Source of the DNA: Bacteroidota bacterium
GTDB lineage: Bacteria > Bacteroidota > Bacteroidia > Cytophagales > Microscillaceae
Assembly: GCA_004293265.1 (NCBI GenBank)
Contig: RDXZ01000022.1
Location: forward strand, 9,158-73,157
Reading direction: 5' to 3'
DNA: 64,000 bases
The stretch's first letter is position 1. Every line of letters starts with the position of its first letter. Below the pieces are notes generated by a model. It made no database searches. It saw only the letters and a program-made list of their open reading frames with translations, and was not told where the DNA came from. A program made the position numbers and the translations under genes. Positions 14,109 through 54,539 of the stretch are shown piece by piece.

Positions 14109-15132
14109 TATAAATAAGTTTAATGTAGTTTTTGTTATCTTTTATAATTTTAGTTACTGAAATATAATATTTTTTGTAATATGGGATAACTGATATTGTA
14201 TTTAAGTATTCTTCAATTGTAATATCATTTTTTGGTTTGTTGTTATAAGTTAATTTAACAAATGTGTGACGGTTAGAAAATTTTTTTATAATTTCATTTC
14301 CTAACATTATTTTTTTAATTGTGTCATTTTGTTGAATGAAATTATTTATTTCATTTTCAATTAAATCTTTATCTACAATGGTACTTTTTACATCTGTTAC
14401 TTCTTTTTTAACAGTTTGTTTTTTATCTACATTAATCAAGAAATCTTTGATTATATTTTTTTTAGATTGGTTAGATTTTATTGTAAATATTTCATATTTT
14501 CTAACATTTGTTAGTTTTAAAAAAATTTCTAATTCTTTTTCTAAAAAATTATTTCTTACTAATGAAAGTAGAGCAATGTTTGAGTATTTATCCTTATTTT
14601 TCGATTTATTGTGAATATTACACGAGTCTAAATATCCATTTGCTAAGATAATAACTGAATATTTCTTATCCTTATCTATCTTATCCTCTATATTTTGATT
14701 AAAATACTCCCAAATATCACAAGAAGATATATTTAATGTATCATTTTGTTTTATATCCTCATAAACTTTATTGATATTCGTAATATATTCTTTTTCAAAC
14801 TTTATAAAACTATTTTTTCTTCTTTCTACCAAAGTATCTTTTAAATTTATTTTTATATTATACTCCAGTCCCTCTTTTATTTTTCTATTGTTTGAAACAA
14901 ATAAAAGTTCAAAACTATTCTTGGCACTAACAAATGTATTTTTTTTCACAATTTGTTTATATTCCTCAAATATATTTTTTATTATGTTTTTTTCATCTTC
15001 AATTTCAGTATCATCTTTTTGTTGAAAAGATGATAAATCAACCAAAATAATAAAATTATTATCATTTGTGCTGCAACTGCTAAAAATCACAACACAAAAG
15101 AAAAAATAAATCCATTTAAGTATTTTTTTCAT
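14089..15132 (-). CDS. lipoprotein, unknown function (possibly degenerate vWA-like); operon gene 11
   Basis: Lipobox FSSC. FIILVDLSSF resembles a degraded MIDAS strand. 17-nt overlap with the upstream gene. Confidence 0.5.
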   Translation of the reverse strand: MKKILKWIYFFFCVVIFSSCSTNDNNFIILVDLSSFQQKDDTEIEDEKNIIKNIFEEYKQIVKKNTFVSAKNSFELLFVSNNRKIKEGLEYNIKINLKDTLVERRKNSFIKFEKEYITNINKVYEDIKQNDTLNISSCDIWEYFNQNIEDKIDKDKKYSVIILANGYLDSCNIHNKSKNKDKYSNIALLSLVRNNFLEKELEIFLKLTNVRKYEIFTIKSNQSKKNIIKDFLINVDKKQTVKKEVTDVKSTIVDKDLIENEINNFIQQNDTIKKIMLGNEIIKKFSNRHTFVKLTYNNKPKNDITIEEYLNTISVIPYYKKYYISVTKIIKDNKNYIKLIYIDEKRK

Positions 15133-17482
15133 CTTCTATTGTTAAAATTATCTTTACCTTTATGTCATCAATGTAATCCAAATCAATACGTGATTCCTTT
15201 TTATATTCGTCTTGCATTTCTTTTAATCTCTTTTTTAATAAATTATTCTCTTCTTTTGGTAAAGAAAGAATACCTGTTTCTGACTTACCTCCAAAAAGAG
15301 TGCTTTTACAAGAAATTTTTATCACTTTTACACTTTCATCATTTATTTTGTTTATTTCAATTTTTGATATTTTTGAACCATTGATAAACTTATTCCATTC
15401 ATCTTTTTCAGTTTTAAAATCATCTTTTATATCTTGTAATGTAAAAAGATTATTGATTTGTGACCAGTGTCCTTTTTCAAACAATATTGGCAATGATCGT
15501 TTAAAAATATCCATTTCAATATTACTATATACCGTAGTATATTCTTCTTTCTTTTCATTTATAAAATTAAGAATACTTTGATAATCCTTTATTTCTCCTG
15601 AATCAACCCATTTTTTATAGTCATCGTGGTACTTTTTAAATTCAGTAGTAGATATACCAACGGGAAGCGAAGTAATAACAGGCAGAGGAGTGTGTACTAT
15701 TGTTTGATTATCCATATTTTCAATTGGCTCAAGTATATACTTACAACCCTCTATCATTACATGTGATATTCCAAAAAGTAACAACAACTCCAGAACAAAC
15801 AACAATATTAAAGCACCTTTAGGAATAGTCTTTGTAAATGATATAGGAATAATATAATCTTTTTTAAGTGCATCCACCGAAACTTTTAATGTAGGTTGTA
15901 TTGGATTATCACTCAATAATGTTCCGTTATACGTAAATTTTAGCTTTTGATTATTGGATAAAGTAGCATTTTCTTCTACTACCTTATTCATAGTGATACT
16001 ACCTTCTTTATTTGTAACTGGTAGATTATTACCATCTAATACTTGATACTCTATTTTTAAGTTAGGATAATAAAAATATTTATCATCAGAAGTATTTTGT
16101 TTCTCATATTTTGCATAATTACTAACAAATGATAAATGCACTTTAGATTCTGGAATGTTGTTTAATATATAATCGCTGGTCATATTATCCGAAGATGTAT
16201 GATAAAATTCTATTTTTTTATCAACTTTTAATGGTTGATTTAAAAAATTACTACTTATGTTATCTTTTATATCAATTACTTGAACATTATACCACTCATT
16301 TACACTTTTAAACATATTTATAATACCTGTTTCTATTTGATTAGATGAAATAAGATTAAATGTAATGTTATTACTTTTCGATATTGCATCAATTTTATTC
16401 CTTAAATTTGACATTGAATTTTTATCTAATCTTTTTCCTTCTTGCTGTTTTATTTTTTCATCTTGAATAAAATCACTTAAAATAGTAACAGAAATATGAC
16501 ATAAATTTTTATCCAATCCTTTTGTCATAATATCTATTTCATTTATTAGTTTTTGAAATGATGTATTCTTACCCTTTTTTATCTTAAATATATTAATTGT
16601 ATCAGAGATTTTTTTCATTATATCTGTCTTAGATGTGGTGTCAGTCTTTATATGTTGATATCTAAAAAAAATAGTTGTATCTTTATTAGTATTATCAAAA
16701 TTTTTGTAGTAACTTATTGTATCTGAAAAATAAATGACATTAAAATATGTTTTTTTATCTTTATTTTCTGGAAATAAATAGACTAATTTTTCTATTATAT
16801 TTTTATATTTTGCTGTAACTGAGTCAGGAATAGATTCGCTCTGGTCTATACAAAATAAATAAACATCTCCTGTTACTTTACTTTTTTTATTTATAAGATT
16901 GTTTATGTTTTCTTCCTTTTTATGATCAGATTGCAGAAAGTCAAAATGAGTTTTAAAGATAAAAGCATCTATATTTCCCATTTTTTCTATTTGTACTGTA
17001 TATAAAGACAATAAAAAAGTAATAGCAGAAATAATAAACAATGTAAATCTAACCCAATTTTTTCCCCAAAAGTGATACTTTATAAAATTTTCCCAAGATT
17101 TATCTTTTTTTATTTTTTTTATTTGTTCCCGAGAATAAATGATGGATAAAAGAGTAATTATTAGCACCGCTAAACCAATCAAAATACTAAATAAAATATA
17201 ATTTTGATTATTGATGTAATAAAAAGAATAAATTAAACCAGATAATGACAATAATGCTAATGGTGGAGATAATATTATTATCCAACGAGGAATACTACTA
17301 ATTTCTTGAGACTTTGACAATAAATAATATAATATTAGGCTTGATAATAATGCTAAAGCACATGAAAATATCAAAATTAATATAATTTGATACCCCAAAA
17401 AAGCAATGCTTAAAAATATGGCTAACAATAAAAGACATATTATGCCTTTAAGAAATCTATAGATTGTAATTTTTTGTTCCAT
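15116..17482 (-). CDS. polytopic membrane protein with vWA-like domain; operon gene 10
   Basis: About 5-6 N-terminal TM helices. YLFCIDQSESI carries a DxSxS MIDAS motif (nt 16832-16846). ILSDF strand. One further TM (ALILLFVLELLLLFGI), then a 220-aa C-terminal domain. Confidence 0.5.
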   Translation of the reverse strand: MEQKITIYRFLKGIICLLLLAIFLSIAFLGYQIILILIFSCALALLSSLILYYLLSKSQEISSIPRWIIILSPPLALLSLSGLIYSFYYINNQNYILFSILIGLAVLIITLLSIIYSREQIKKIKKDKSWENFIKYHFWGKNWVRFTLFIISAITFLLSLYTVQIEKMGNIDAFIFKTHFDFLQSDHKKEENINNLINKKSKVTGDVYLFCIDQSESIPDSVTAKYKNIIEKLVYLFPENKDKKTYFNVIYFSDTISYYKNFDNTNKDTTIFFRYQHIKTDTTSKTDIMKKISDTINIFKIKKGKNTSFQKLINEIDIMTKGLDKNLCHISVTILSDFIQDEKIKQQEGKRLDKNSMSNLRNKIDAISKSNNITFNLISSNQIETGIINMFKSVNEWYNVQVIDIKDNISSNFLNQPLKVDKKIEFYHTSSDNMTSDYILNNIPESKVHLSFVSNYAKYEKQNTSDDKYFYYPNLKIEYQVLDGNNLPVTNKEGSITMNKVVEENATLSNNQKLKFTYNGTLLSDNPIQPTLKVSVDALKKDYIIPISFTKTIPKGALILLFVLELLLLFGISHVMIEGCKYILEPIENMDNQTIVHTPLPVITSLPVGISTTEFKKYHDDYKKWVDSGEIKDYQSILNFINEKKEEYTTVYSNIEMDIFKRSLPILFEKGHWSQINNLFTLQDIKDDFKTEKDEWNKFINGSKISKIEINKINDESVKVIKISCKSTLFGGKSETGILSLPKEENNLLKKRLKEMQDEYKKESRIDLDYIDDIKVKIILTIEDEKNT

Positions 17483-17504: not shown

Positions 17505-18689
17505 TTATATAGTTTGTAATAATGCGCACAACTTAGTTCGCCATGTGCTAAAACTTTCTCCTACTGGCATATCAATAAAATTTCCTCTCAATAGCCAAAA
17601 TTTGTTTTGATCATCTTTAGACAACATACTTATAGATGAATTTATTTTGCCAAATAAATCAGGTATCTCTAAAAGTGTTGCTTCTAAAGCAATTTTATAC
17701 CATTCATTTTTTAGTTCTTCATATATTTTTACTGTTTGTATTTCTTCTCTCCATTCGCTTTTTAGTTCTTCATATTTTGCTTCTGGAATTTCCTCTTTCC
17801 ACTCATTTTTTGTGTACGTTTTTTCGGAAGACAAACCTATATCATTAGTATTATCATTACCTATAAAATAATCAACAATGTCTAAACCAATTTCTTTATA
17901 AAGATATGCAGGCATATTATTATTTTTTGAAAAAGGATTGACCATTATTTTTAATATTTTTACATCTTCTATTCCTTTAAAATACTTAAACATACTTGTA
18001 TCTTGTATTTTATTTTGGTTTAAGTTAATATTTTTTAATTTTTTTAATTTTTCAAGCACAGAAATATCTATAATTTGATTAGAATATAAATTAATATTTT
18101 CTAAGTTTAGGAATCTTTCTAATATTGTGATGTTTTTTATTTTATTATGTGACAAAGATAAATCTGTCAAGTTTTCAGTTCCTTCAATTGATTCTATATT
18201 TTCAATATCATTATGTTGTGCTAATAATATTTTTAAATCACAACTTACACTCAAGTTATGTATATGATTACGTGATATATTTAAAAAAACAATCTTCTTT
18301 TGTTTAGAAATTTTTATACTACGTATTTTATTACGAGAAACATCAAGATAAACTAAATCTTGCATTTTCTGTAAACAATTCATATTAGTAATTTGGTTAT
18401 TACTTACATCTAAATGGGTTAAGTTTTCCATATTTACAAATCCATCTGTGTTATTTATGTTGTTTCCAGAAATATTTAGTATTTTTAAATATGGTAAATT
18501 AAAACGAGGATTTGAAAAATTAATAATTCCTGCTTTCCCCTTTCCTCCAACATTCATTAAGTTTAAACCTATTATTTCTTGATTCTCCAAACAACTATAC
18601 GATAATGGAGTGTGTAACACTTCTCTTTCTGTTACCCTCTTTAATTTAACTGCCAATGAGTTTTCAATTATACTTATTTGATTTTCCAT
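17505..18689 (-). CDS. leucine-rich-repeat (LRR) protein, no signal peptide; operon gene 9
   Basis: About 9 consecutive 22-aa LxxLxLxxNxIxxI repeats (for example LTHLDVSNNQITNMNCLQKMQD). C-terminal EW(K/R)EEI tandem motif plus a helical domain. Confidence 0.8.
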   Translation of the reverse strand: MENQISIIENSLAVKLKRVTEREVLHTPLSYSCLENQEIIGLNLMNVGGKGKAGIINFSNPRFNLPYLKILNISGNNINNTDGFVNMENLTHLDVSNNQITNMNCLQKMQDLVYLDVSRNKIRSIKISKQKKIVFLNISRNHIHNLSVSCDLKILLAQHNDIENIESIEGTENLTDLSLSHNKIKNITILERFLNLENINLYSNQIIDISVLEKLKKLKNINLNQNKIQDTSMFKYFKGIEDVKILKIMVNPFSKNNNMPAYLYKEIGLDIVDYFIGNDNTNDIGLSSEKTYTKNEWKEEIPEAKYEELKSEWREEIQTVKIYEELKNEWYKIALEATLLEIPDLFGKINSSISMLSKDDQNKFWLLRGNFIDMPVGESFSTWRTKLCALLQTI

Positions 18690-18691
18690 TT

Positions 18692-19753
18692 TTAATCATC
18701 TTTTTTACGAATATTTTTCATTATTGTAGCAATATTTACCGCAAATCCTGCATTATCAATATCTGTTCTTTTAAAAGTTGCAATTCCTACTACCTCGCCA
18801 TTCATATTCATAACAGGACCTCCACTATTTCCTTGTGAAATAGCCGCATCTATTTGTATCAGCCCTTCGTCCTCATTACCCATTGAACGAATGGCAGAAA
18901 CTATTCCTTTAGTTATTGTTTGTTCAAGACCTCTTGGGCTTCCTATAACGAATATTTCTGAACCTGATTTAGGTGTTTTTTTTGCTAATTTTAAGTATGG
19001 AAATTTTTTATTTTTACTTTCTATTTCAAATTTCGCATAATCAAAAAAATTATTATATATCGATACTTTTTTAATTTTATAAAAAGCACCATCTTTCATC
19101 TTTATAAAGGCAATATCTGCTCCTTTTAGTACATGAAAATTAGTTAAACATTCATTGGGAGATATAAAAAAACCAGAACCTAAACTTGTTTCTCCTTCTT
19201 CATTGCGAGCATGTATTGTAAAAACTGATTCAGAGTTTTTTTCTACTAATTTTTCTAATGAATATTTTTTTTCGTTACTAACTTGATTTTCTAACTCATC
19301 ATTTTCTTTTTCATCAACCGAATCTTTGTCACTGATTAATAAACCATATTCACCATTTGAAAAACATTGCTCAAAAACATTTAAACTATCAAATAAATTT
19401 TTTTTATTTAGTTTTGATAATCCTTTTTTAAGAAGTTTTTTATTCAAAGACTCACCACTGTTTGCGTCTTTCAAATAAGCATTTATTTCATCAGTATTAT
19501 TGTTGATAGGTTGGTAACTTTTACTATCCTGAACAATCATTACATTTTTACCTATCCAATTAGACAACTGATTCGATATTTTGGCATCTTCTTCTATTCC
19601 TATCAAATTTACTTTTACACCGTTTTCGAGTTCAATTGTATTAGAATCTATAATTTTAATGATTTTTTGTGGCGAACTTTCTATATCAGTACTTTTACAA
19701 CTAAAAAAAAAGCTGCTAATCAATAAAATGATTGCAAACATTATATTTTTCAT
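18692..19753 (-). CDS. lipoprotein with C-terminal trypsin-like (S1/DegP-type) serine protease and N-terminal SNase-like OB region; operon gene 8
   Basis: Lipobox FFSC. Triad context TNFHVL (His), FDYAKF (Asp), GNSGGPV (Ser). The N-terminal IIDSNTIELENGVKVNLIGIE resembles the thermonuclease OB strand, which is weak evidence. Confidence 0.65.
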   Translation of the reverse strand: MKNIMFAIILLISSFFFSCKSTDIESSPQKIIKIIDSNTIELENGVKVNLIGIEEDAKISNQLSNWIGKNVMIVQDSKSYQPINNNTDEINAYLKDANSGESLNKKLLKKGLSKLNKKNLFDSLNVFEQCFSNGEYGLLISDKDSVDEKENDELENQVSNEKKYSLEKLVEKNSESVFTIHARNEEGETSLGSGFFISPNECLTNFHVLKGADIAFIKMKDGAFYKIKKVSIYNNFFDYAKFEIESKNKKFPYLKLAKKTPKSGSEIFVIGSPRGLEQTITKGIVSAIRSMGNEDEGLIQIDAAISQGNSGGPVMNMNGEVVGIATFKRTDIDNAGFAVNIATIMKNIRKKDD

Positions 19754-19770
19754 AATTATATTTATTTTAA

Positions 19771-20388
19771 TTAATTTACTTTTAAAGAACCTATTTTTGG
19801 AATAATTTGTATTAAAAAACGTTGATTTAATTTATCGTCTGAGTCTATTCTACCTACTCCTTCAGTACCATTGCCTGCTATTTGTATTTCACAAACTTCA
19901 CTTTGAAAATTTACATCATTTTTTTTCCACAAGTCATATAACGCTAAAGCTCGTCTGTAACTCAGGAGATAATTTTCGTAGTTATTGCCTGTTTTTGATG
20001 AACTTCCTTCAATAATTAATAGATACTTGATATTTTTATCTTTTTTACGAACTTCTTCTATCATTCTATTAATTTCTTTTCCTGCTCCGATAAGTTCTTC
20101 ATAATTATCTTCGGGTATTTTATCATCTCCCAACTTGAATTGAACTTGTTTCTTAAGCACATGTCTTTTATATTTTGGTTGAAATTCAAAATAGTCATCT
20201 TTTAATTTACTCAATGATGTTTCTATTTCTATTATTTTTTCATATTGTTTGACCATTACTTTTAACCGAGATTTTTCATTTTGAAACAATGTAAAACTCA
20301 ATACAAATAAAATCAACATAACTACAAATAAAACAGTCATCAAATCCACATAACTTGCCCAAAAAAAATCCCTTTTGCTTTGTTTCAT
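19771..20388 (-). CDS. MotB/ZorB-like stator subunit with OmpA-type peptidoglycan-binding domain; operon gene 7
   Basis: The N-terminal FWASYVDLMTVLFVVMLILFV matches the MotB TM helix, including the conserved Asp (D15, nt 20344-20346). The C-terminal IIEGSSSKTGNNYENYLLSYRRALALYDL is an OmpA-like core. Confidence 0.65.
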   Translation of the reverse strand: MKQSKRDFFWASYVDLMTVLFVVMLILFVLSFTLFQNEKSRLKVMVKQYEKIIEIETSLSKLKDDYFEFQPKYKRHVLKKQVQFKLGDDKIPEDNYEELIGAGKEINRMIEEVRKKDKNIKYLLIIEGSSSKTGNNYENYLLSYRRALALYDLWKKNDVNFQSEVCEIQIAGNGTEGVGRIDSDDKLNQRFLIQIIPKIGSLKVN

Positions 20389-20406: not shown

Positions 20407-21837
20407 TTACATTATAGAACGTAAAAATAACATAACATAACCAATAGCAATCAATAACAACCCAATGATAGATAATTCACTACCAAATGTTACCCAACTT
20501 TTAAATACTGATTTTTCTGGTTTATTTGATAAAGATTCTTTCAATGCTGATATATTTTCATTCAAGTTAATCAAATTATTTAACATTATAGTTTCATTTT
20601 CTTTTGATGCTCCTTTGCTTTGTTTTTTAATCATCAAATCAACAATGTACTTTGTTTCCTTTGTATCTTTTTGTATTTCATTTACTAAAACAACCAATGG
20701 TTTAACTGCTTCCATAAAGTCCAAATAATTTACTTGATTGTTTAGTTGATTATAAAATTTAGTTTTTTCTTCTGTTAAACTCTGAAAAAAAGCGTGCATT
20801 TCTCCTATAAAATGTTGTTCTTGATTGTTTATATTTTGTTTCCACTTATCAAAAAATTCATTCGTATTTTGTGAGGTAAGTTCTGTTAAACTTTCTAATT
20901 CAGCAATACGAGATTTTACAAATTTATCAACTGCATCATCTGCTTCTTTATAATGTTGGTCTATTCTATCATAAGCATCTGCAATTTTTTGAAAAACATC
21001 ACTTACTGATTCTATTTTTTCAAATATCACTAAATTTGCCCTTGCTATTTTTTTTACATCTATTTGATTCAAATGTTTTAAAAAATCAACTTGAGAATCT
21101 ATATTTTTAGTAATATTACCAATAGTACCTTTGAAAGATGATATATTTGTAGAAAATTCTTTATTAAATTTTTCTAAATTACCTGCTAAATTTGTCAAAG
21201 TTTCACCTATACCCACATTAGCAATTGGTAATAATTCTCGCCTCAAAAAATCATAATATTGTTCTTTATTATAATTCCTTTCTACCAAACATTTATTAAA
21301 AAATAAATTAGATATAACAGTTAAAAATAATCCAAAAAAACTGCCTATCATCGCTATCAATACACCAAACAAAAATGATGATATTGTACTTGAATTAATA
21401 GCATCTTGACTTTGATTAAACACAAATTGCAATAAACCTACAGAAACCCCTAAAAATGTAGCCATCAAACCTACATATAAAGGTATATTGATGTTATTTT
21501 GAATATTATCTTCTTGTGAGTTAGATTTTTTTTCTGCTATGTCTTGCAGAACCTGATAGTCGATACCACTGCCAGGTCTGCTTTTTAAGTAATTATTAGT
21601 TTGTACCAATATATCAGAAAACTCTTTACTCAGCGAACTACTTGTGATTTTAATATAACTAATATCATCAACCTCCTTATCATCAGGTTTGCCCACACGC
21701 AATACATTGCCTATATTATGTGGGTATAATTCTTTCAGTTTTTGTATTCTTTTTTTATTTTGAATAAAAAGACTTATTTGTATGATTAAAACTATTGCGA
21801 TGATAATAAACTCTATCAAATAAAGTATTTTTTCCAT
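20407..21837 (-). CDS. MotA/ExbB/ZorA-like ion-channel subunit with long coiled-coil tail; operon gene 6
   Basis: TM1 at the N-terminus. The paired helices YVGLMATFLGVSVGLLQF and FLFGVLIAMIGSFFGLFLTVISNLFFN (nt 21298-21489) resemble the MotA_ExbB core. Then about 250 aa of predicted coiled coil and a terminal TM helix. Confidence 0.5.
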   Translation of the reverse strand: MEKILYLIEFIIIAIVLIIQISLFIQNKKRIQKLKELYPHNIGNVLRVGKPDDKEVDDISYIKITSSSLSKEFSDILVQTNNYLKSRPGSGIDYQVLQDIAEKKSNSQEDNIQNNINIPLYVGLMATFLGVSVGLLQFVFNQSQDAINSSTISSFLFGVLIAMIGSFFGLFLTVISNLFFNKCLVERNYNKEQYYDFLRRELLPIANVGIGETLTNLAGNLEKFNKEFSTNISSFKGTIGNITKNIDSQVDFLKHLNQIDVKKIARANLVIFEKIESVSDVFQKIADAYDRIDQHYKEADDAVDKFVKSRIAELESLTELTSQNTNEFFDKWKQNINNQEQHFIGEMHAFFQSLTEEKTKFYNQLNNQVNYLDFMEAVKPLVVLVNEIQKDTKETKYIVDLMIKKQSKGASKENETIMLNNLINLNENISALKESLSNKPEKSVFKSWVTFGSELSIIGLLLIAIGYVMLFLRSIM

Positions 21838-21849
21838 AATAAACCTCGT

Positions 21850-23256
21850 TTATTTGTAATTAATGCGTGCTTTTTTTTCTAATTTCCAAACATTTCCTTG
21901 TTTTCTAATCTTCCCTGCTGATGTTGTATATATTTTAGGGTCAGTTGTTTCGACTTTTCCTGTTATTTCACAAGTGTGTTCAAGAAGCGTAGTGATACCA
22001 TGAATAACATCTTTGTATTGATCATTCATAGTTTTGATAGTAAATGAGGCTTCTCCATCATTTTCATTTCTCATTATTACTTCAAACAACGTATTCTCAT
22101 CTTCTGCATCATATAATTCAAAATACATATCAGAACGAAAATAACGAGCATATTTTATAATTGTTTTTGCTGTTGGTTGTGATAATGCTGTTGGTTCACC
22201 GTTATTAGAAAGTAATAATCCTTGTGAAGACCCTATTTTAGATTCCAACGCATTGATTTTTTTTTTCAATTCTTCATTTTGTTCATTCAATTGATTATTT
22301 TTTGATTCTACTCCATCAATTTTAAATTTCAAAGAATCATTTTCTGTTTTCAATTTATCAAGTTGTTTTTGTAGTTCTTTTTCTTTTTCAGTATATTCTG
22401 TTTTCTCTTCATTCTTTTTTTCCATAAAAAAAAATATTTTTATTTTTTTTATTATACCTAACCTAACCAAAAGAATCAATACCAGTACAATTACTGCAAA
22501 TGAGCCAATTACAATCAAAACAATTATTTTCCAACTATTCCAGCTATTTTCTGGATCGTTTTTGTCTTCACCTAATATTATTTTTTCTTGTTCTTTGAGT
22601 TTGGTTATATCATTTAGGAATGGTGTAATTGATTTTAAGTAGTTTTTCAATAATTCATCATTGATTACTTTTGCATATCCTTCTATATCCTTCAAGTAAT
22701 CGGTTTTTTTAGTATGATTTTTTAAAAGGGTGTCATTCTTTTTATTCGCATACTTAATTATTGCTTTTTTAATTATACTATCTGATTTTGGATTTTTTAT
22801 ACCACCACCTTTTGTATTTATGGTACTTAGATATTCATTAAATTTTTTTCTCAATAATGATGAATCTACTTTTTTTTTATCGTATAATAAACTTTGATCA
22901 GCAAAAAGTATCATTTTATCTGTCAAAGTTTTTACTCCATCTATGTCATCTGGTTTTATACCAGTTTTATTATTTATTTGGTCCATTCTAAATCTATAAG
23001 TTGAGTCTATAAACGCAGACGAAGTTAATAAATACAGAACTTTTTGATTAACAATACCCTTTATATTATTTATACCATTTGCCGTATCACTGATTTTTTC
23101 TATTTGACTAATATAATTTTTGTTTGTTGCTGAATCTATTTTCAAACATTCAATAATACTAATTTTAAGTAATTCAAGAGAATGGTTTTTAGTTTGCCCT
23201 ATTATATTGGTTGAGCAAAAAAAGAGTAATATAGCTGATAGAATATATTTTTTCAT
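21850..23256 (-). CDS. bitopic membrane protein: exported N-domain, TM, coiled coil, C-terminal globular domain; operon gene 5
   Basis: Signal peptide MKKYILSAILLFFCSTNIIGQ (ATG at 23256). TM helix IIVLIVIGSFAVIVLVLILLV. Heptad-rich segment KELQKQLDKLKTENDSLKFKIDGVESKNNQLNEQNEELKKKINALESK. Confidence 0.55.
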   Translation of the reverse strand: MKKYILSAILLFFCSTNIIGQTKNHSLELLKISIIECLKIDSATNKNYISQIEKISDTANGINNIKGIVNQKVLYLLTSSAFIDSTYRFRMDQINNKTGIKPDDIDGVKTLTDKMILFADQSLLYDKKKVDSSLLRKKFNEYLSTINTKGGGIKNPKSDSIIKKAIIKYANKKNDTLLKNHTKKTDYLKDIEGYAKVINDELLKNYLKSITPFLNDITKLKEQEKIILGEDKNDPENSWNSWKIIVLIVIGSFAVIVLVLILLVRLGIIKKIKIFFFMEKKNEEKTEYTEKEKELQKQLDKLKTENDSLKFKIDGVESKNNQLNEQNEELKKKINALESKIGSSQGLLLSNNGEPTALSQPTAKTIIKYARYFRSDMYFELYDAEDENTLFEVIMRNENDGEASFTIKTMNDQYKDVIHGITTLLEHTCEITGKVETTDPKIYTTSAGKIRKQGNVWKLEKKARINYK

Positions 23257-23313
23257 AATGTTATAAATTGAAAGATAAAACAATGAGTTGTTAAACCCAT
23301 TGTTTCATTGTTA

Positions 23314-26300
23314 TTAGTTGCCGTATTTATTATAAATTTCTTTTCCAACTTGATACAATTTTTCTTTTATTTCATAAAAAAACAAAGTTTCAGAAATTTC
23401 TTCATTTTTATTGGTATCATTTTGGTTCATAAGATGCAATCCTTTTTTGATTCCATCTTCTTTATTTTGTGCCCACCATAGCATTATATCTTGTAAATTT
23501 GTTTGTATTCCCAAATTAGATAAATGCTTTGTGATAGATGAAGTAGTAAATAACATATTGATAAAATCAACTACATTTTCAGCAACACTATTTTTTACAT
23601 CAGCAGTAATATCTTTATAATCTTTGATGTTATCTTGATTGATAAGATTATTTTTATGATTTTTTTGTCCTAACCAACAAATAGATTCATTAGATTGTGA
23701 TGACTTCATATACCCACTGTACAAAATTCCTACAGGTGTTTGAGGAGTATATTGATATAAACAGCATCCTTTTGCTGTAGCTTGTTTCGGGTCTTTTATA
23801 TTTACCAACTGAAAATTAGTAGGTGCTTCTTTACCACTTACTTTTGAGAGTATAGCCTTTGTAATTTCAGTAATTGTACCCATCAAAGGATCTAATATTT
23901 GAATGTATTTACTACCCATTCCTGTGAAAACAAAATATCTTGGTATGTTTATATTTTTAAATTTGATAATTTCTGCTAAATGATAAACAATAGAAGCATA
24001 ATGTATCAATAGTTGCACTCGTAAATGTTTACAATCCCCAAGAAACGATAAAAAACCTAATGCTTCGTCATATTTAAAACATAATGATATGATTTCATTT
24101 GATTTCAGTGTTTTTTTTGAAAAATCATCAAGTACATTTTTTGCACGTTTAAACGCATCATCTTCTCTATTTTGTGCGTCTATATATTTTTTAAATGATT
24201 GTAAAAATGGATTATCTTTTGAAGGTTGTTCATTGAATCCCTCTCCCCACAGTGTATCTCCCGCAAATCTGAAAGATGTATTGAAAGTATTTCCATTTGT
24301 AAAGTTAAAAAAAACATCAGTAGTACCGCCTCCAATGTCTATATTACAAAGATCCTCATTTGGAACTAATTCATTAGCCTGTAAATAACGGTAAGGTGCA
24401 TACGCCTCTGATAAGCAATAAGTATCTCTTTGTGATTTGAATATTTGTCTAAAATTATCATTCCACAACGAACAGAGTTTATCTAAATCTATTCTTTGCA
24501 TGCTCAAAGGTGCAGACCAGTAAATATTTGTATTGTTAATATTGCCACCTATCAAAGCTACTTTGTTTCTAATTAACCGAAGTAATTCTTCTAAATAAAC
24601 GCTTGTATTTTGTTTTTCATTACCCGTCGTCCATTTAAGATTAAACTCGGTTTTATTACCACCTGTTATTACTTCACCATCTCTCAAATAAGGATTAAAA
24701 AGTATGTTGATATTACTCAATAGTAATTTAGGGGTTGAAGACCTTGTATTAACCAAAATAGAAGTTCGCATTGGTAAATCACCGTCATTGATAATAGAAG
24801 GCACAAATTGTGCTTGTGGTATATTTCCAAAAGGTGCCAAGTATAGCCCACCAGCATCGTTCCACATATCTTTGGCTTCATATTTTTCTTTTACATCTTG
24901 TTTTGACTTGTCTGGTTCGTTCAAGGTAATCATTTGCATATCTTTTTCTTCTATTGTAAAAGTAGATATATGTTTCTCACTTCCTTTTGTATAAGCTATA
25001 TAGGTGTTAGTAGTACCAAAATCGACTCCAAATTGATATGATTCATATCCATTCTTACACTCCACCCACTTTGGTATGATTAAGTTCCTAATTACTTTAT
25101 CATTTTCTTCATTTGGATAAGTAACTTCTATATAATCCCAAGGTGTATTATTAACTTGAAAAAATGTAGTATTTTGACCACTATCTGATTGTTTAAAGTC
25201 TCTCTTATCCTCAAAAACACTTTTATGCTCTCCATAGGGTTTTTTATCTTTATCCTCTACTCTTGGCAAAGAATTTTGTTTGGGAATACTTTTTTGGTTT
25301 GTTGATGTTTTGTCATTTTGTTGGTAATAGAAATCCAATTTAAAATCATTTTGTAGATCTTTTTGTTTTTCTATAAACATTACTTTATAAAAATCATTGT
25401 ATTCATCTTCATCTTTTCCCATCATTTTATAAAAAGGGAAAATACCAATATTTATATTTATCTTGATAATTGTTCCATAGTCATTTTTTGAGGGTTTATA
25501 ATAATAATATTTTTCAAAAATTATTTTACCCTTTTTAATAGGAATGGTTAATGAAACTCTAACAGATTCTTTATCTTTTATACTAAAAGTAAGCATTGAC
25601 TCTATATCTTTAGGTTCAAAGTAATCAAAGAATTTTTTTTTAAGAGGACACAAATAATTAAATTTTTCGAATTTTTTAAGACTATTTTCGACACCCGTTT
25701 CATATTCTACCTTGCCTATATGAAAGCGCGAGGTTTGGACATTATAAGGTAATGCCAATAAATGAGATTCTAAAAAATCGTTTATTGTTAAATATGGATA
25801 TTTTTCGGCAACAATAGGTAAAATTCTATCAGATAAAGGAGTATTTTCATCAAGTAAGGGAACTTCATACGTAGATTTCCAATCACTTTGTGTATATTTC
25901 ATACCACCTGAACTAAATCCTGCCATTAAAACCAAAGGAGGATTGTCTATATCAGGGATTAATACATTACTATTATGTTTAATTACAAAATCACTTTTTT
26001 GTTTGACATCAACGCTACCTTTTCTTCTTGTTGGAATTTCTATATTATTATAAACCACCACTGATTCCCTATTATCATACCTAAGAATTTCATAATCGTT
26101 TTCATATAAATTGTTAGCATGGTATGTTTCCTTATCCCTTTTTAGGTTTTGCATTTTTGTACGAAAATCTCTGTTTCCGTCATTTATAAATTTAGGTTGA
26201 TTTTCAATGTATTTATATAAATTTTTACATTTTGTAGTTAATGAATTATGTGCTAAAAATATTTTATACATAAACTCTTGAAATTCTTGTTCTCTGGCGT

Positions 26301-26874
26301 ACAAGGGTTGTGCTTGATTCTCATCAAAATAGTGATGACCTGTAGTATTGGCAATTTTTAATTGACTTATATCGGCAGTAGGAAAAAGTAATGTAAAAGG
26401 TGATGTACCTCCTATTACTCTATTTTCAAATAAAAACATATAAATATTTGATTCATTTGCCATTATTTTTCCTGCACTTGTATATAATTCTAAAGTTTCT
26501 GCTAATAACCTTTGGGCTTCATTTCCAGAATTTTTCAATTTATCGAGTTGCTGGTCTTTGTTCCATTTAGTGATTTTAAGACCTTGGTCTTTCAATGTAT
26601 GATAATTAAAAACTATTTCCATTAAATCCAAACATTTGGAAACCAATCTATGATGTATAGAGTTTCCAGTAGGATTTTCAGCAACCATACCAAAAACAGA
26701 GTCGTACAAATGCATCTGTGCAAAAGGACTTGGCACTGATGTAACAACTTTTTTAATATCATTTTCGTTATTATCTTTAAATTTGGTTTGAATTGTATCC
26801 ATTCCTATTTTTTCAAAAGGACTCCAGTACTCTCCTGTGCTGTCTATTGAATAATTAATTAAAATTTTAGCCAT
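23314..26874 (-). CDS. 1186-aa protein with C-terminal Hsp70/actin-like (ASKHA) ATPase domain and 600-aa unknown N-terminal region; operon gene 4
   Basis: Phosphate-1 motif GVDFGTTNT (nt 24997-25029). Phosphate-2 motif IDIGGGTTD (nt 24316-24342). Adenosine-like FVFTGMGSKY. No P-loop seen. Confidence 0.6.
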   Translation of the reverse strand: MAKILINYSIDSTGEYWSPFEKIGMDTIQTKFKDNNENDIKKVVTSVPSPFAQMHLYDSVFGMVAENPTGNSIHHRLVSKCLDLMEIVFNYHTLKDQGLKITKWNKDQQLDKLKNSGNEAQRLLAETLELYTSAGKIMANESNIYMFLFENRVIGGTSPFTLLFPTADISQLKIANTTGHHYFDENQAQPLYAREQEFQEFMYKIFLAHNSLTTKCKNLYKYIENQPKFINDGNRDFRTKMQNLKRDKETYHANNLYENDYEILRYDNRESVVVYNNIEIPTRRKGSVDVKQKSDFVIKHNSNVLIPDIDNPPLVLMAGFSSGGMKYTQSDWKSTYEVPLLDENTPLSDRILPIVAEKYPYLTINDFLESHLLALPYNVQTSRFHIGKVEYETGVENSLKKFEKFNYLCPLKKKFFDYFEPKDIESMLTFSIKDKESVRVSLTIPIKKGKIIFEKYYYYKPSKNDYGTIIKININIGIFPFYKMMGKDEDEYNDFYKVMFIEKQKDLQNDFKLDFYYQQNDKTSTNQKSIPKQNSLPRVEDKDKKPYGEHKSVFEDKRDFKQSDSGQNTTFFQVNNTPWDYIEVTYPNEENDKVIRNLIIPKWVECKNGYESYQFGVDFGTTNTYIAYTKGSEKHISTFTIEEKDMQMITLNEPDKSKQDVKEKYEAKDMWNDAGGLYLAPFGNIPQAQFVPSIINDGDLPMRTSILVNTRSSTPKLLLSNINILFNPYLRDGEVITGGNKTEFNLKWTTGNEKQNTSVYLEELLRLIRNKVALIGGNINNTNIYWSAPLSMQRIDLDKLCSLWNDNFRQIFKSQRDTYCLSEAYAPYRYLQANELVPNEDLCNIDIGGGTTDVFFNFTNGNTFNTSFRFAGDTLWGEGFNEQPSKDNPFLQSFKKYIDAQNREDDAFKRAKNVLDDFSKKTLKSNEIISLCFKYDEALGFLSFLGDCKHLRVQLLIHYASIVYHLAEIIKFKNINIPRYFVFTGMGSKYIQILDPLMGTITEITKAILSKVSGKEAPTNFQLVNIKDPKQATAKGCCLYQYTPQTPVGILYSGYMKSSQSNESICWLGQKNHKNNLINQDNIKDYKDITADVKNSVAENVVDFINMLFTTSSITKHLSNLGIQTNLQDIMLWWAQNKEDGIKKGLHLMNQNDTNKNEEISETLFFYEIKEKLYQVGKEIYNKYGN

Positions 26875-26916
26875 TGTTTTAGTAGTTTTAAATTTAATAA
26901 ATACGACAAAAATATT

Positions 26917-28386
26917 CTACCCTATTATATTTTTATCAAATACTTTTTCCATTGCTTGGTACATTATTTTCATAAATTTTTTTTCACTTTGCTCACTTGA
27001 TTCCTTTTCAAAATTATTAAGTTGAGTAGTAAAAGTATCCTCCGAAATTCCTGAGACTAACCATCCAGTCTTAATTTCTTTATCCTTTAACATTTTATTT
27101 AAGTTACTATTTTTAAAATCAAAAGGTACAAAAGATCTTTCATTTGTTAGCATCTCTTCCATAAATATATAGTATTTTGCTACGAAATCTTTGAGATAAG
27201 GATAAAAAACATCATTATCGTTTAAATACTTATCTTTAAGATTCATCCTTTTAGCATAATCCTTTTTATTTAGATCTTTTTCTATTGTATTTTTAATGTA
27301 GTGTGCAAAATAATGAAAACATACCATTGGTTTATAAATATCTTTTTTTGTACCATCGTAAAAATGTGAAAAATTAATTTCTTTTGCATCTTCTTTAATA
27401 CCAAAAGCATAATGTTGTGTGCCTGATGTATTTTCCCATAATCTATCAGGTTGTTCCATAAAATGAAGCATTGAAGTTGCCGCCATAATTTCTATAAAGT
27501 GTGCCTCATTTTTTTGATTCAATCCACCTTCAGAGTTTTTATATTGTTTTTTGAATGTATCTCCCATATAATATAAAGAATCTAATTTTGGTAGATTATT
27601 TTCATAATATAACAAAGCCTCTTTGGTTTTTGTAGTAAAAATATTTGAGTTAATCGCACTTGAATTATCTGATTGAACATCAAAATAAGGCATCACACTC
27701 ACAGCACCAATTCGAGCATTTTTTATTTGAGGCGCTTTTGTTAAATTATTCTTAGATTCTTCCCCAATTCTTAAATTTTCTAAAATTAATGGAAAACCAG
27801 ATGCACCTGTTCCCCCAAATATAGAGCTAACGATAAATATTCTATCTTTATTGTCGGCGTTGTAACAATCACCAAAAAACTCCCATTCTTTTGAGTCTTT
27901 GATACTATTTAAAACAATTGTACCAACGTTTGGGCTTCCTCTAAAACCAACATCAAGTTTTTTCTTTAAATTATCTTCTGAGAATAATAATTGTATCAAA
28001 TCTTGTGTTTCGGTTTCTAATTGACTATATTCTAAAAAATCCTCAAAAGTTTTTGTTATACCACCTGCACCAAAAGAAAAACGAAAGGAATTATCAGCAA
28101 TTCTACCTGTATTATCCAAATCCTTTAAAGTTGATATTTCGGTTTTAAAAAAACCTTTTTCTTGGTACCCATTATACCCCAATTGCTTGTGAATATTTTG
28201 ATATAGTTTCAACAATTCTATTGTACGCACTGTATCTCCATTTTGCATATCAGGGTCTATGAATATTGGTATCACTCTTTTAGCTTGGATATCAGCTCCA
28301 GAAGCGAGCAATATTGTTAAAGCCTTAACAACTCTTGCACCTGTTCCACCTATAGCAAAAATATATAAATCTGAATTTATTGGCAT
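26917..28386 (-). CDS. tubulin/FtsZ-superfamily GTPase-like protein (Tubulin_2 / FtsZl-1-like); operon gene 3
   Basis: T1-like loop IFAIGGTGARVV (nt 28336-28353) and T4 tubulin-signature-like SSIFGGTGASGFP (nt 27796-27816). Confidence 0.55.
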   Translation of the reverse strand: MPINSDLYIFAIGGTGARVVKALTILLASGADIQAKRVIPIFIDPDMQNGDTVRTIELLKLYQNIHKQLGYNGYQEKGFFKTEISTLKDLDNTGRIADNSFRFSFGAGGITKTFEDFLEYSQLETETQDLIQLLFSEDNLKKKLDVGFRGSPNVGTIVLNSIKDSKEWEFFGDCYNADNKDRIFIVSSIFGGTGASGFPLILENLRIGEESKNNLTKAPQIKNARIGAVSVMPYFDVQSDNSSAINSNIFTTKTKEALLYYENNLPKLDSLYYMGDTFKKQYKNSEGGLNQKNEAHFIEIMAATSMLHFMEQPDRLWENTSGTQHYAFGIKEDAKEINFSHFYDGTKKDIYKPMVCFHYFAHYIKNTIEKDLNKKDYAKRMNLKDKYLNDNDVFYPYLKDFVAKYYIFMEEMLTNERSFVPFDFKNSNLNKMLKDKEIKTGWLVSGISEDTFTTQLNNFEKESSEQSEKKFMKIMYQAMEKVFDKNIIG

Positions 28387-28405: not shown

Positions 28406-28807
28406 TTAAAAAGGAATTTTACTTGCGTGATTTTTTCCCAAATTTTTTAATGTTATTGACACTAAAAAATATAAGATACTTGAATAAAAAATATTGATTA
28501 TAACCAAATACCATGCATAAGTATTATAATCTACCGCATTAGCATTACGTATATAATAATTATTTGCAAAAATTATTACAACTAAAGCAGATATGATAAT
28601 ATTTAATAATAGGATAAAAAACCACCAAATAATGGTAGCATACTTTGTAGTCGAAAGTTTATTTAAAACTAAGTAATATACAGTAGGTAGTAGTAAACTA
28701 CTTAAAATGTTTATATATGCTACAAACACAAAAAACTTTTTAAAATCTCTACCATATTTGTAAGAACCTATAAAAACCTCATAAAGAGATATAAAAAAAT
28801 CATTCAT
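28406..28807 (-). CDS. small polytopic membrane protein (3-4 TM); operon gene 2
   Basis: 133 aa, almost entirely hydrophobic helices. 19-20 nt gaps to both neighbours. Confidence 0.55.
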   Translation of the reverse strand: MNDFFISLYEVFIGSYKYGRDFKKFFVFVAYINILSSLLLPTVYYLVLNKLSTTKYATIIWWFFILLLNIIISALVVIIFANNYYIRNANAVDYNTYAWYLVIINIFYSSILYFLVSITLKNLGKNHASKIPF

Positions 28808-28827: not shown

Positions 28828-30123
28828 TTAGAAATAGTACTCATTTTGTTTATATGCTTCTAAAATTCCTTCTATCAGTTCTTTAAAAGCAAAAGTTTTT
28901 TTATTGTTTTCTTTCTTGTTAATATCTTTATCATTTTCAGTAGACCATTTTTCATACCAAGTAGAATTTTTTTTCTTTAGTTTTATCGACAACGTATTTT
29001 TTGTTGATATTGCATTATTGTTTAGTTCTAATGTTATAAAATGTGTATATGGTTTTAAATCATTTTGTTGTTCAGATGAAATAGTTTTAAAAAAATCTGA
29101 TTGTTTTTTCACAATGACTGATTCTTTTTTTACAAGATTATCTACCTCTATATTTTCTTTTAAATATTTTTCATCTTGGACATTTATTGGATAAGATTTT
29201 AAATCTAATCCAATTGTAAACTTAATCGTTTCACCCAATGGTAATTTCTCTATATGTGTGGTATCTACATAATCCCAACCGCCAGCCCTACCTTCAGAAG
29301 ATAAAATAGTATGTTTTGGTGCATTATATTGCCAACCAATATGTAATTCTTCCCTTGCTTTAAATTTTTTATCATTAATAATATAATTTGTAAATTTTGG
29401 CATTAAACTTTTTCTGCCAATAACCCATATATAAAAAGGACGTAAATTTGTTAGACAACAAGATTCTGGTTGATTCGAATGATTAAAATATGTTCCGTCA
29501 AACTTTGATAAAAAAGCATAAACAGAGATTCCAAAGTCTTTTTGATATTTTGCAAATGCTCCTGTAACCTTTCCTTTTAATCCATCACTATCTTGATTAG
29601 CATACGGTTCTTTTTTTATCTTATCTGTGGGATAAGACATTATACTTTCAGTAAAAAATATATTTATAGATGATGTGTCTTTATTTTTAAAAATATTTTC
29701 AAAAATAGTGTGAATTGGAGTATCTTTTCCATTTCTAAATCCCCAATCCTCGTCCATTCCATCAGAAAACTCACCAACTAAATCTCCTGCTGATTTGATT
29801 TTATTTTTATAAGATTCAACTTTACCACCATCTAAAAGATAAATTTTCAGTTTTTCATCAAATGAAGTATCTGAAAAATAACTTAAGAAAGTTCTAACTT
29901 TATTTTTAAAGTTATCATCTTCTTCTCCTCTTTTTGGTCCGTTTGTCAAATAACCACCCATACTTGCTGATTTGTCAAAAAAAATATTAATTTTTAAGTT
30001 ATTATTTGAATTTATTTTAGAAGCAACACCCATTTTTAATTCTAATTGATGATTGGTGCAACCAAGAGAGAGTATCAAAAAGAGAAAAACAATCAAATTT
30101 CGTATGTATATTCTTAATATCAT
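28828..30123 (-). CDS. vWA-domain lipoprotein; operon gene 1
   Basis: Lipobox LSLGC after ATG at 30123 (the track TTG start at 30159 is less likely). INIFFDKSASMGGY is a DxSxS MIDAS motif (nt 29962-29976). Confidence 0.6.
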   Translation of the reverse strand: MILRIYIRNLIVFLFLILSLGCTNHQLELKMGVASKINSNNNLKINIFFDKSASMGGYLTNGPKRGEEDDNFKNKVRTFLSYFSDTSFDEKLKIYLLDGGKVESYKNKIKSAGDLVGEFSDGMDEDWGFRNGKDTPIHTIFENIFKNKDTSSINIFFTESIMSYPTDKIKKEPYANQDSDGLKGKVTGAFAKYQKDFGISVYAFLSKFDGTYFNHSNQPESCCLTNLRPFYIWVIGRKSLMPKFTNYIINDKKFKAREELHIGWQYNAPKHTILSSEGRAGGWDYVDTTHIEKLPLGETIKFTIGLDLKSYPINVQDEKYLKENIEVDNLVKKESVIVKKQSDFFKTISSEQQNDLKPYTHFITLELNNNAISTKNTLSIKLKKKNSTWYEKWSTENDKDINKKENNKKTFAFKELIEGILEAYKQNEYYF

Positions 30124-30435
30124 AATTGTGTTATTTTTGTATATTGAGTAAATTGACAAACAAGAAACTATTTCAATGTTTGCTTGAATAATATAATAGT
30201 ATTAATTAAAAAAAAATTTCACAAATATAATTTGTTAAATTTAATATTCCAAATAATTATGAAAAAAAATATTTTTTATTTTTTATAAATCACAATAAAA
30301 AAACCTATGCCAACTATACAAGTCAAAACCCCACAAAAAGTGTAAAAAAAAATCAATTTTTTTTTAAAATATTTTTGAATGAATAAATCTTATCTCAAAA
30401 AAGTACAATTTTTTTGAGATGGGTGTTTCAAAAAA

Positions 30436-54198: not shown

Positions 54199-54539
54199 AT
54201 ATTTGAAGTTCAAAAGATTGTTTTTAAATTGAATATTTTACAAAAGTAGAGATTATTTTATGAAAATCAAAATGTAATAAAAGTAAATTTGAAGATAAAT
54301 ATTGAAAAAATGACTGAGAAATCTTACATTTATCTAAAAAAAGTAAATTTTTATCGAAAAAAGTGGTTTTGAAGTGTATAATATTTTTTTTATTGAAAAA
54401 AAATATCATACCTTTGCGAATTAAATATTTTAATTGCTAACTTTGTAACTAAAATTATTAATTTTGTAAATATTTTACTACTTACTTATTCATTTTAAAA
54501 TAGCAAAAAATAAAAAATCACAATACGTATTTTAATTAT

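Follow-up and report, generated by a model that had tools for sequence, protein, structure and literature searches.

Tubulin-fold and actin-fold proteins encoded side by side in one bacterial operon raise the question of whether the two act together and, if so, in what kind of system. We addressed this question at a locus in a 64,000-nucleotide (nt) stretch of DNA from a Bacteroidota bacterium (contig RDXZ01000022.1 of assembly GCA_004293265.1, positions 9,158 to 73,157), hereafter called the window. The source is a Bacteroidota metagenome-assembled genome (MAG) of low G+C content (~26-30%). Two minus-strand open reading frames (ORFs) separated by 42 nt encode proteins of 489 and 1186 amino acids (aa), identical to the 'Bacteroidetes bacterium' entries EAZ85_03085 and EAZ85_03080. 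A first-pass annotation of this DNA had described them as a tubulin-like and an actin/Hsp70-like (ASKHA) gene forming a possible two-filament or GTPase-ATPase module. This observation is correct and not due to chance, and the cassette to which the two genes belong represents a predicted, uncharacterised kind of system. We see about an even chance that the pair is the cytoplasmic core of a conserved envelope-spanning machine of seven genes, which would constitute a new short-form branch of the FtsZl1/Tubulin_2 systems.

The glycine-rich loops attributed to the 489-aa protein were found at the places given in the first-pass annotation, AIGGTGARV at residues 11-19 and SSIFGGTGASGFP at residues 187-199, and they occur in the order expected of loops T1 and T4 of the tubulin/FtsZ superfamily. 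Alignment of 55 homologues (37-71% identity) revealed that G13, G14, G16 and R18 of the T1 loop (IGGTG) and S188-G194, G197, F198 and P199 of the T4 loop are invariant, and that the same holds for a T3-like GFxGxPxxG (147-155) and a T5-like PYF (233-235). Because of this invariance the glycine-loop motifs cannot be put down to chance. The T4 loop reads FGGTGA[SA]G, i.e. the first glycine of the GGGTG[ST]G signature is replaced by phenylalanine, and the T3-like motif lines up with GAGANPEVG of FtsZ in an alignment that is itself not significant. T1 and T4 are ~178 aa apart, compared with ~86 aa in Escherichia coli FtsZ, in agreement with the much longer spacer described previously.

The window protein was matched by Pfam PF00091 (Tubulin) with an E-value of 1.4e-5 and 25.9 bits (cut-off 33), over the T4 region only, and by PF13809 (Tubulin_2) with an E-value of 8e-4 and 19.2 bits (cut-off 27), centred on the T4 loop. 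PF00091 also matched 49 of the 55 homologues (E<=0.01) and PF13809 matched 46 of them (best E 6.5e-10). The family comprises at least 2717 clusters at 90% identity and is uniform in length (464-518 aa). A single-sequence search of the 489-aa and 1186-aa proteins against PDB sequences gave nothing significant, and the best PDB match of the tubulin-like family profile was only CetZ (E 0.058). Structure prediction with AlphaFold2 (AF2) gave a model with a predicted local distance difference test score (pLDDT) of 89.3 and a predicted template modelling score (pTM) of 0.92, for which tubulin, FtsZ, TubZ, PhuZ or CetZ made up 49 of the top 50 Foldseek matches in the PDB (prob 0.99-1.0). Together with the Pfam matches of the homologues, this points to a tubulin/FtsZ-type GTPase domain and not to a dehydrogenase. 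In the model the C-terminal third is nearly all-helical (344 to 487), no NxDxxD/E-type T7 motif follows the H7-like helix (297-311), and no coiled coil was found in either the sequence or the model. We conclude that the 489-aa protein is a predicted GTP-binding member of the tubulin/FtsZ superfamily, a short form on the fringe of FtsZl1/Tubulin_2. Without a recognisable T7 loop, and with a C-terminal domain modelled as all-helical, it is not to be assumed to follow canonical protofilament GTPase chemistry; on the model, polymerisation would be possible and is not implied, and the two-filament idea is doubtful in its canonical form for this partner.

The 1186-aa protein carries the ASKHA motifs in the order phosphate-1 (DxGxxN; DFGTTN, 618-623), connect-1 (E), phosphate-2 (DxGGGTxD; DIGGGTTD, 846-853) and adenosine (GxG; FTGMGSK, 983-989), in accordance with the three motifs reported before. 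Among 176 representatives D618, G620, T621, E823, D846, G848, G849, D853 and G985 are at least 95% conserved, as are K747, W748, K1030, T1033 and G1036, indicating that the ATPase site is under purifying selection. The AF2 model (pLDDT 82, pTM 0.77) was matched by Foldseek to MreB (1jcf, E 3e-8, target-normalised TM-score 0.54-0.57) and to the nucleotide-binding domains of DnaK/Hsp70 (TM-score 0.4-0.48). The family profile reached MreB 7bvy in the PDB (E 1e-5) through the phosphate-2 region and gave weaker matches to FtsA (E 0.13) and exopolyphosphatase. As modelled, about residues 600-1050 adopt an ASKHA fold of the MreB/Hsp70 type in which the nucleotide site is intact. Pfam, NCBIfam and PADLOC gave no family match for the window protein, including no Pfam HSP70, MreB or FtsA match, and its NCBIfam MreB score was 11.9 bits for a cut-off of 293. 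The N-terminal ~600 aa, which had been said to resemble nothing recognisable, indeed had no match in Pfam, NCBIfam, PADLOC or the PDB-profile search and no relatives outside their own family. This part is well folded in the model (mixed alpha/beta, then beta-rich at 428-600) and contains the conserved motifs SIPSPFA (46-52), D83, S158-P159 and R194. A word-index search retrieved 35 full-length relatives of the 1186-aa protein, and a HMMER scan of 1.84 billion representatives gave 3220 matches, with 1217 clusters (50% identity) at E<=1e-30, nearly all of them 1100-1200 aa long and matching end to end.

Scanning one genome per GTDB species with the tubulin-like protein led to the identification of at least 580 loci. 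Counts out of 80 refer to the best 80 of these, which come from Hymenobacter, Pontibacter, Rufibacter, Adhaeribacter, Flavobacteriia, Saprospiraceae and Muribaculaceae. All 80 have genes for a lipoprotein, the tubulin-like protein and the big protein, with order and strand unchanged, and in every one the NTPase genes are adjacent. A MotA-like gene is found downstream in 77/80 loci and a MotB-like gene in 74/80. The remaining two positions of the cassette are occupied by a ~135-aa ORF with three transmembrane (TM) helices and by an ORF of 310-510 aa, and the full order is lipoprotein, 3-TM protein, tubulin-like protein, ASKHA giant, bitopic coiled-coil protein, ZorA/MotA-like and ZorB/MotB-like subunits. 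The Bacteroidota loci, the cyanobacterial plasmids and the Deinococcus FtsZl1 operon all have a 3-TM ORF of 130-170 aa at the same place in the order. The cassette stops at MotB in 45 of 81 loci, and what comes after it elsewhere is lineage-specific: a trypsin-like protease (6-9 loci), an aspartyl protease or an EEP-family protein. In Hymenobacter (22 species) it lies at one syntenic site, with flanking genes common to 16-21 of the 22 species; this site adjoins a nucleotidyltransferase gene and is near LemA and TPM-domain genes, and the cassette there is usually without an effector-like gene.

The pair was also found outside the Bacteroidota. In Gloeothece PCC 7822 and Picosynechococcus, mobilizable plasmids encode a 3-TM protein, a ~510-aa tubulin-like protein, a ~1100-aa protein and then coiled-coil membrane proteins, and the Picosynechococcus plasmid has in addition a ~410-aa protein ahead of the one with three TM helices. 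With 40.8 bits, the tubulin-like protein of Gloeothece lies above the PF13809 cut-off. Its big neighbour is homologous to the 1186-aa family (hhalign profile prob 99.4, E 5e-21) and has a Pfam FtsA match (E 0.003). Divergent metagenome contigs retain the four-gene core, and one Joint Genome Institute (JGI) metagenome protein of 1611 aa, P0218, labelled 'Tubulin like' at its source, consists of a tubulin-like part (1 to ~490) fused to the ASKHA giant (~491-1608). Among the 2.9 million viral contigs of IMG/VR we found 11 loci, 10 of which retain the pair. A phage origin was rejected on the grounds that these loci are so few and carry the whole cassette as host genomes do. The results on fold, nucleotide site and co-occurrence therefore support the idea of a coupled GTPase-ATPase module well. 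What does not hold is that it is a self-contained unit of two genes, since the pair is the centre of a seven-gene membrane cassette with a ZorAB/MotAB-like stator.

Some of the loci deviate from the common arrangement. Three IMG/VR loci (L091, L092 and L094) represent a divergent variant in which the tubulin-like protein has 32% identity and a partial match to the big protein runs straight into the MotA-like gene; being classed as viral and carrying a whole host-type cassette, they may be prophage-flanking host DNA. Locus L096 (1-6245, 6258-15643) has the core of lipoprotein, small protein, tubulin-like protein and ASKHA protein, followed by two short ORFs of the coiled-coil family and a trypsin-like protease, and MotAB was not detected in it. 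Upstream are two ~1100-aa proteins, one with a faint HSP70 match, neither of which is matched at E<=1e-3 by the profile of the ASKHA giant; they may represent a second family of giant ATPases in the same system, more divergent than the first. In L095 (1464-6466) a minimal four-gene cassette lies beside one gene of the Peptidase_S24 (LexA/CI-like) type, one of the BT4734-like primase type and several small ORFs, with DUF4357, Endonuclease_NS and HU-HIG genes downstream, a context that resembles a defence island or a mobile element that has integrated. Four loci from Rhodanobacter or Janthinobacterium lividum MAGs (L047, L051, L066 and L074) encode cassette proteins whose identity to those of the window lies within the Hymenobacter range, and they look like mis-binned Bacteroidota contigs rather than evidence of presence in Proteobacteria.

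In the window the pair takes the third and fourth places in a dense minus-strand operon with intergenic gaps of -20 to +42 nt, which extends from 30159 down to at least 12340 (Table 1). Neither NTPase has a signal peptide or a TM helix, and both are therefore predicted to be cytoplasmic; lipoboxes and TM helices are found in the partner proteins, with lipoprotein signal peptides in the 443-aa protein and several proteins of the operon tail. The best library match of the 205-aa protein is PADLOC ZorB1 (E 9e-12), followed by Pfam OmpA (E 2e-5). In an alignment of 15 sequences, Deinococcus included, D15 in its TM helix (SYVDLMT) and S143, R146 and A147 (LSxxRA) are invariant. The 476-aa protein gave weak matches to Pfam MotA_ExbB (E 0.004), NCBIfam ZorA (E 8e-5) and PADLOC ZorA2 (E 2.4e-5) and has TM segments at 7-25 and ~118-164, a helical tail of ~250 aa and a C-terminal TM helix. 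Judged by their sequences, these two proteins bear the hallmarks of a proton-conducting MotAB/ZorAB-like unit, presumably of 5:2 stoichiometry. The 443-aa lipoprotein contains FFDKSASMGG, a DxSxSM-type (vWA/MIDAS-like) motif that is invariant in its family as [DE]xS[GA]SMxG; M67 and G69 of the motif are invariant in the family alignment. A vWA fold was not found in this lipoprotein by a Pfam scan of 17 homologues, by a PDB-profile search or by hhalign against the vWA protein of the window itself. The 477-aa protein gave only weak matches, of coiled-coil type, in the libraries, and its C-terminal domain is conserved.

Table 1 Genes of the minus-strand operon that contains the tubulin-like and ASKHA genes (positions in the window).
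Product	Position	Strand	Features
443-aa lipoprotein	28828..30159	-	signal peptide and LGC lipobox; first gene of the conserved cassette
133-aa small membrane protein	28406..28807	-	3 predicted TM helices (hydropathy)
489-aa tubulin/FtsZ-superfamily GTPase-like protein	26917..28386	-	cytoplasmic (predicted); short form, fringe of Pfam Tubulin_2 (FtsZl1)
1186-aa protein	23314..26874	-	cytoplasmic (predicted); N-terminal ~600 aa, ASKHA ~600-1050, helical C-terminus
477-aa bitopic membrane protein	21850..23283	-	signal peptide, periplasmic part, TM 253-271, cytoplasmic coiled coil
476-aa MotA/ZorA-like channel subunit	20407..21837	-	Pfam, NCBIfam and PADLOC matches
205-aa MotB/ZorB-like subunit	19771..20388	-	TM helix with Asp15 and OmpA-like peptidoglycan-binding domain
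353-aa trypsin/HtrA-like serine protease lipoprotein	18692..19753	-	Pfam Trypsin_2 E 8e-26; present in only 7/80 loci; lineage-specific accessory
394-aa leucine-rich-repeat (LRR) protein	17505..18689	-	Pfam LRR_4 E 5e-19; accessory
788-aa multi-TM protein with vWA domain (DQSES)	15116..17482	-	Pfam VWA E 2e-4, below cut-off; accessory
Operon tail: lipoproteins of 347 aa and 280 aa, alpha/beta-hydrolase lipoprotein of 306 aa	12340..15132	-	tight/overlapping; lineage-specific

Precisely at the junction of the 1186-aa gene with the gene that follows lies a hairpin (23275-23308, minus strand) with a 15-bp stem, of which only 3 pairs are G-C, and a T-rich run after it; the hairpin overlaps the listed TTG start of the following gene. 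The true start of this 477-aa gene is probably an ATG 27 nt downstream of the TTG (MKKYILSAILLFF...), and the hairpin may determine how strongly the NTPase pair is expressed relative to the membrane genes. In a scan for consensus sigma-70 promoters, promoter-like sites were no commoner than in shuffled sequences, Bacteroidota promoters not being of the sigma-70 type. A terminator consensus scan was uninformative, and Rfam and tRNA scans of the window gave no matches.

The first-pass annotation recognised no characterised system in which tubulin-type and actin/Hsp70-type NTPases are encoded side by side. This overlooks the dcw operon, in which adjacent genes encode an actin-fold ATPase, FtsA, and a tubulin-fold GTPase, FtsZ, and in which FtsA, the ASKHA partner, docks FtsZ to the membrane. 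The pairing of the two folds as such is therefore not unprecedented. The window pair differs from FtsA-FtsZ in that the genes come in the opposite order, the ASKHA protein is three times larger and has a ~600-aa domain lacking detectable relatives, the tubulin-like protein shows no recognisable FtsZ C-terminal domain or T7 loop, and the context is a stator/lipoprotein cassette instead of cell-division genes. Neither protein attains the FtsZ, FtsA or MreB family thresholds. That the genes are the organism's own ftsA and ftsZ was rejected, the scores being far under the family cut-offs and the context wrong. The claim of no precedent also passes over the FtsZl1 operons, where the Magnetospirillum neighbourhood lists a DnaK-like gene, amb2961 (PMC2875224), and over the tubulin and HSP70 themes of predicted conflict systems (PMC7159879).

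The closest described relatives of the window cassette are these FtsZl1 operons, especially those of the Deinococcus type (DR_0540-DR_0535 / Deide_2p00760-00810). FtsZl1 operons (Pfam Tubulin_2, PF13809), with their vWA, OmpA and membrane proteins, were predicted by Makarova and Koonin in 2010 to have a role in membrane remodelling, and FtsZl1 itself was described as also being without a T7 loop and C-terminal domain (PMC2875224). A later phylogenetic study equates PF13809 with the 'FtsZ-like' group of these authors. The Deinococcus operon encodes hypothetical proteins of 478 and 109 aa, FtsZl1 (1070 aa), a MotA/TolQ/ExbB protein, an OmpA protein, an LRR protein and a kinase (PMC2875224). None of the families listed in Additional file 6 of that paper (A1-A2, B1-B9 and others) is described as actin/Hsp70-like.

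Like FtsZl1, the 489-aa protein has a divergent tubulin/FtsZ GTPase domain with long T1-T4 inserts and no recognisable T7 loop or C-terminal domain, and it is encoded in an operon with MotA-like and OmpA-like MotB genes, which in the window also holds a TM-vWA gene. The order is that of the Deinococcus operon: an exported protein of ~420-480 aa, a 3-TM protein of ~110-130 aa, the tubulin-like protein, the MotA-like and OmpA/MotB-like proteins and the LRR protein. The MotA-like proteins of the window and of the Deinococcus deserti FtsZl1 operon are weakly similar (BLASTP E 2e-7), and in the D. deserti plasmid copy a small 3-TM protein gene precedes the tubulin gene and a MotA-like gene follows it. 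This shared topology around the tubulin gene, together with the similarity of the MotA-like proteins, makes the window cassette a variation on the same theme as the Deinococcus operon. Likeness between D. deserti FtsZl1 and the window family was limited to the T4 region (E 0.015), and hhalign detected no similarity between the ASKHA giant and the C-terminal 600 aa of D. deserti FtsZl1; alignments of family profiles with single sequences (E. coli FtsZ, D. deserti FtsZl1) are too insensitive to speak for or against kinship. FtsZl1 has ~900-1200 aa, including a coiled coil and a C-terminal domain that is helical, whereas the window tubulin-like protein has 489 aa and is accompanied by the separate 1186-aa ASKHA protein. 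In place of the long FtsZl1 the window cassette thus has a short tubulin-like protein, the ASKHA giant as a protein of its own and a membrane protein with a coiled coil. The literature searched contained no paper on the pair of short tubulin and ASKHA giant or on its link to a stator, and this form appears to be undescribed.

How might such a machine work? The GTPase and the ATPase would bind each other and undergo nucleotide-regulated assembly on the inner face of the membrane; we infer the interaction from their strict adjacency across two phyla and in different contexts and from the one fusion. By analogy the pair may follow FtsZ-FtsA logic, the actin-fold protein docking the tubulin-fold protein to membrane partners, and the 3-TM and coiled-coil proteins could be the anchors or docks of the assembly. 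In Bacteroidota the peptidoglycan-anchored, proton-driven channel with its long helical tail might sense an envelope event or power the assembly, and information or force would pass between the wall or outer lipoprotein and the cytoplasmic NTPases. Several results weigh against this explanation. The 489-aa protein of the window falls below both curated Pfam cut-offs, and its Foldseek scores are modest (E ~1e-3, TM-scores of only 0.25-0.38), the low TM-scores being due to the large T1-T4 insert and the different C-terminal part. With no recognisable T7 loop and a helical C-terminal part in the model, it may be a GTP switch rather than a polymer. No MotAB was found in the surroundings of the cassette on the cyanobacterial plasmids, nor on some Bacteroidota contigs, and a stator is therefore not a necessary companion of the pair. 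The P0218 fusion comes from a single sequence on a 6.2-kb contig, might be an artefact of assembly or of a frameshift and is consequently no more than suggestive. Finally, the vWA assignment of the lipoprotein is drawn from its motif, the Pfam and PDB-profile searches having been negative.

As to the biological output of the machine, envelope or membrane remodelling comes close to an even chance and has a slight edge over Zorya-like defence, an appreciable possibility, the rest falling to other roles. Taken as an explanation in its own right, a housekeeping apparatus for vesicle formation, outer-membrane or wall maintenance or cell-surface organisation is possible, though on balance not expected. 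The pair would then be a membrane-shaping cytoskeletal element, and the stator would supply proton-motive energy across the envelope. This is what Makarova and Koonin predicted for FtsZl1 with its vWA, OmpA and membrane proteins (PMC2875224), and the idea is still a prediction of 2010. Every non-NTPase part of the core is an envelope protein, 5:2 motors commonly energise outer-membrane processes (PMC12204202), and the conserved Hymenobacter synteny with its housekeeping flanks gives the appearance of vertical inheritance; the patchy distribution across phyla, partly on plasmids, and the cyanobacterial versions without a stator fit such a role less well. The Hymenobacter pattern (one syntenic site between housekeeping genes in 16-21 of the 22 species) and the 45 of 81 loci that end at MotB without an effector-like gene also argue against a Zorya-like anti-phage or conflict system, stable vertical inheritance of this kind being atypical of defence islands. 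In such a system an attack by phage on the envelope would be sensed by a ZorAB-like proton motor anchored in the wall, whose helical tail would recruit or activate the tubulin-like/ASKHA pair as the stand-in for ZorC/D, E or F/G. Infection would be blocked by an NTP-dependent assembly of the pair, with the variable proteases, LRR proteins and hydrolases as extra effectors. We regard this as rather unlikely, and as unlikelier still that the cassette is an unrecognised immune system in which the tubulin-fold and ASKHA pair assembles at the membrane on a signal from the motor and stops the invader.

The resemblance to Zorya is nevertheless specific. As in Zorya, soluble cytoplasmic partners are encoded alongside a MotAB-like channel of the 5:2 type, which has a long-tailed A subunit and a peptidoglycan-binding B subunit, and among all profile libraries both channel subunits match ZorA and ZorB best. 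The long tail of ZorA has been described, and Zorya subtypes vary precisely in their soluble partners (PMC11946911). The genes after MotB differ from lineage to lineage and include those for trypsin-like and aspartyl proteases, EEP and LRR proteins; a gene for a CHAT protease lies next to the operon, and relatives of the cassette are carried on mobilizable plasmids or, in one case, lie beside a mobile region with S24-repressor and primase-like genes. The window A subunit is, unlike ZorA, shorter and ends in an extra TM helix, and the cassette adds lipoprotein, 3-TM and bitopic coiled-coil envelope parts. The Zor matches are weak and partial, with model scores far below cut-off (NCBIfam ZorA 21.9 bits vs 100, ZorB1 21.7 vs 400). 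No PADLOC model matched the tubulin-like, ASKHA, lipoprotein or coiled-coil proteins, and the other operon proteins had no PADLOC match to ZorC/D, ZorE or ZorF/G, only to generic protease models. In addition the core is without a nuclease or toxin, and the cassette is found at only 11 loci in 2.9 million viral contigs.

Tubulin and HSP70 homologues have themselves been placed in predicted conflict systems: the DO-GTPase/GAP1 systems of Firmicutes and Actinobacteria contain tubulin homologues with vWA, or HSP70 with GrpE, as non-overlapping themes (Kaur, Burroughs, Iyer & Aravind 2020, PMC7159879). Their likeness to the window cassette is that they are predicted to be membrane-proximal and to use tubulin homologues, vWA proteins and HSP70-fold ATPases as NTP-dependent assembling components. 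TRAFAC DO-GTPases and GAP1 are what defines these systems, and no P-loop GTPase domain was found among the 14 operon proteins with Pfam and NCBIfam, a result that covers the GTPase and not GAP1, for which there is no library model. A chaperone-like remodelling system, in which the ASKHA giant would act as an Hsp70-like ATPase on a GTP-switch protein without any filaments, is quite improbable. Hsp70 nucleotide-binding domains are among the top fold matches, the invariant K747 and E823, D846 and T851/T852 make up a putative counterpart of the Hsp70 catalytic set, and the tubulin-like protein shows no recognisable T7 loop or canonical C-terminal domain. Against this, MreB scores slightly above Hsp70, the window protein has no Pfam HSP70 match, no Hsp70 substrate-binding domain was found, and Pfam and NCBIfam revealed no J-domain or GrpE gene in the cassette or operon.

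Other genes of the window were also inspected. Upstream of the operon on the same strand, with two plus-strand genes between, are genes for an 861-aa protein that ends in a CHAT (caspase-like) protease domain (32559-35144, Pfam E 2e-29) and for a 351-aa protein without library matches (35216-36271); these could form a separate conflict-type module. The two plus-strand genes, divergent from the operon, encode a 215-aa soluble protein (30820-31467) and a 291-aa protein (31469-32344) that has a single hydrophobic segment and, in its middle, a low-complexity part rich in lysine and asparagine; neither has a Pfam match. That they are sigma/anti-sigma-like regulators is only a guess from their position. 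A plus-strand ORF of at least 3165 codons (54504-63998) with a signal-peptide-like start (MRQLYLKLTLIFLIMFAGVSVMLKAQ) runs off the end of the window, in a part with a G+C fraction of 0.37-0.40, and looks like a giant secreted or surface protein.

FtsZl1/Tubulin_2 is the most divergent part of the tubulin/FtsZ superfamily, and no experimentally studied member of this branch was found in the literature searched. The locus described here defines a compact and very widespread sub-branch of it, in which a tubulin-fold GTPase is obligatorily paired with a large family of actin/Hsp70-fold ATPases; the latter has more than 1200 clusters at 50% identity, and no Pfam or NCBIfam model was found for it in the copies searched. 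If the Zorya-like explanation were true, this would be a bacterial defence with cytoskeleton-type polymers as effector. More generally, the system could reveal how NTPases of the tubulin and actin folds work together in settings other than cell division, what the function of FtsZl1 systems is and whether cytoskeletal assemblies can be driven or gated by 5:2 ion motors, and these questions are directly testable because the carriers include cultivable species of Hymenobacter, Pontibacter, Rufibacter and Flavobacterium.

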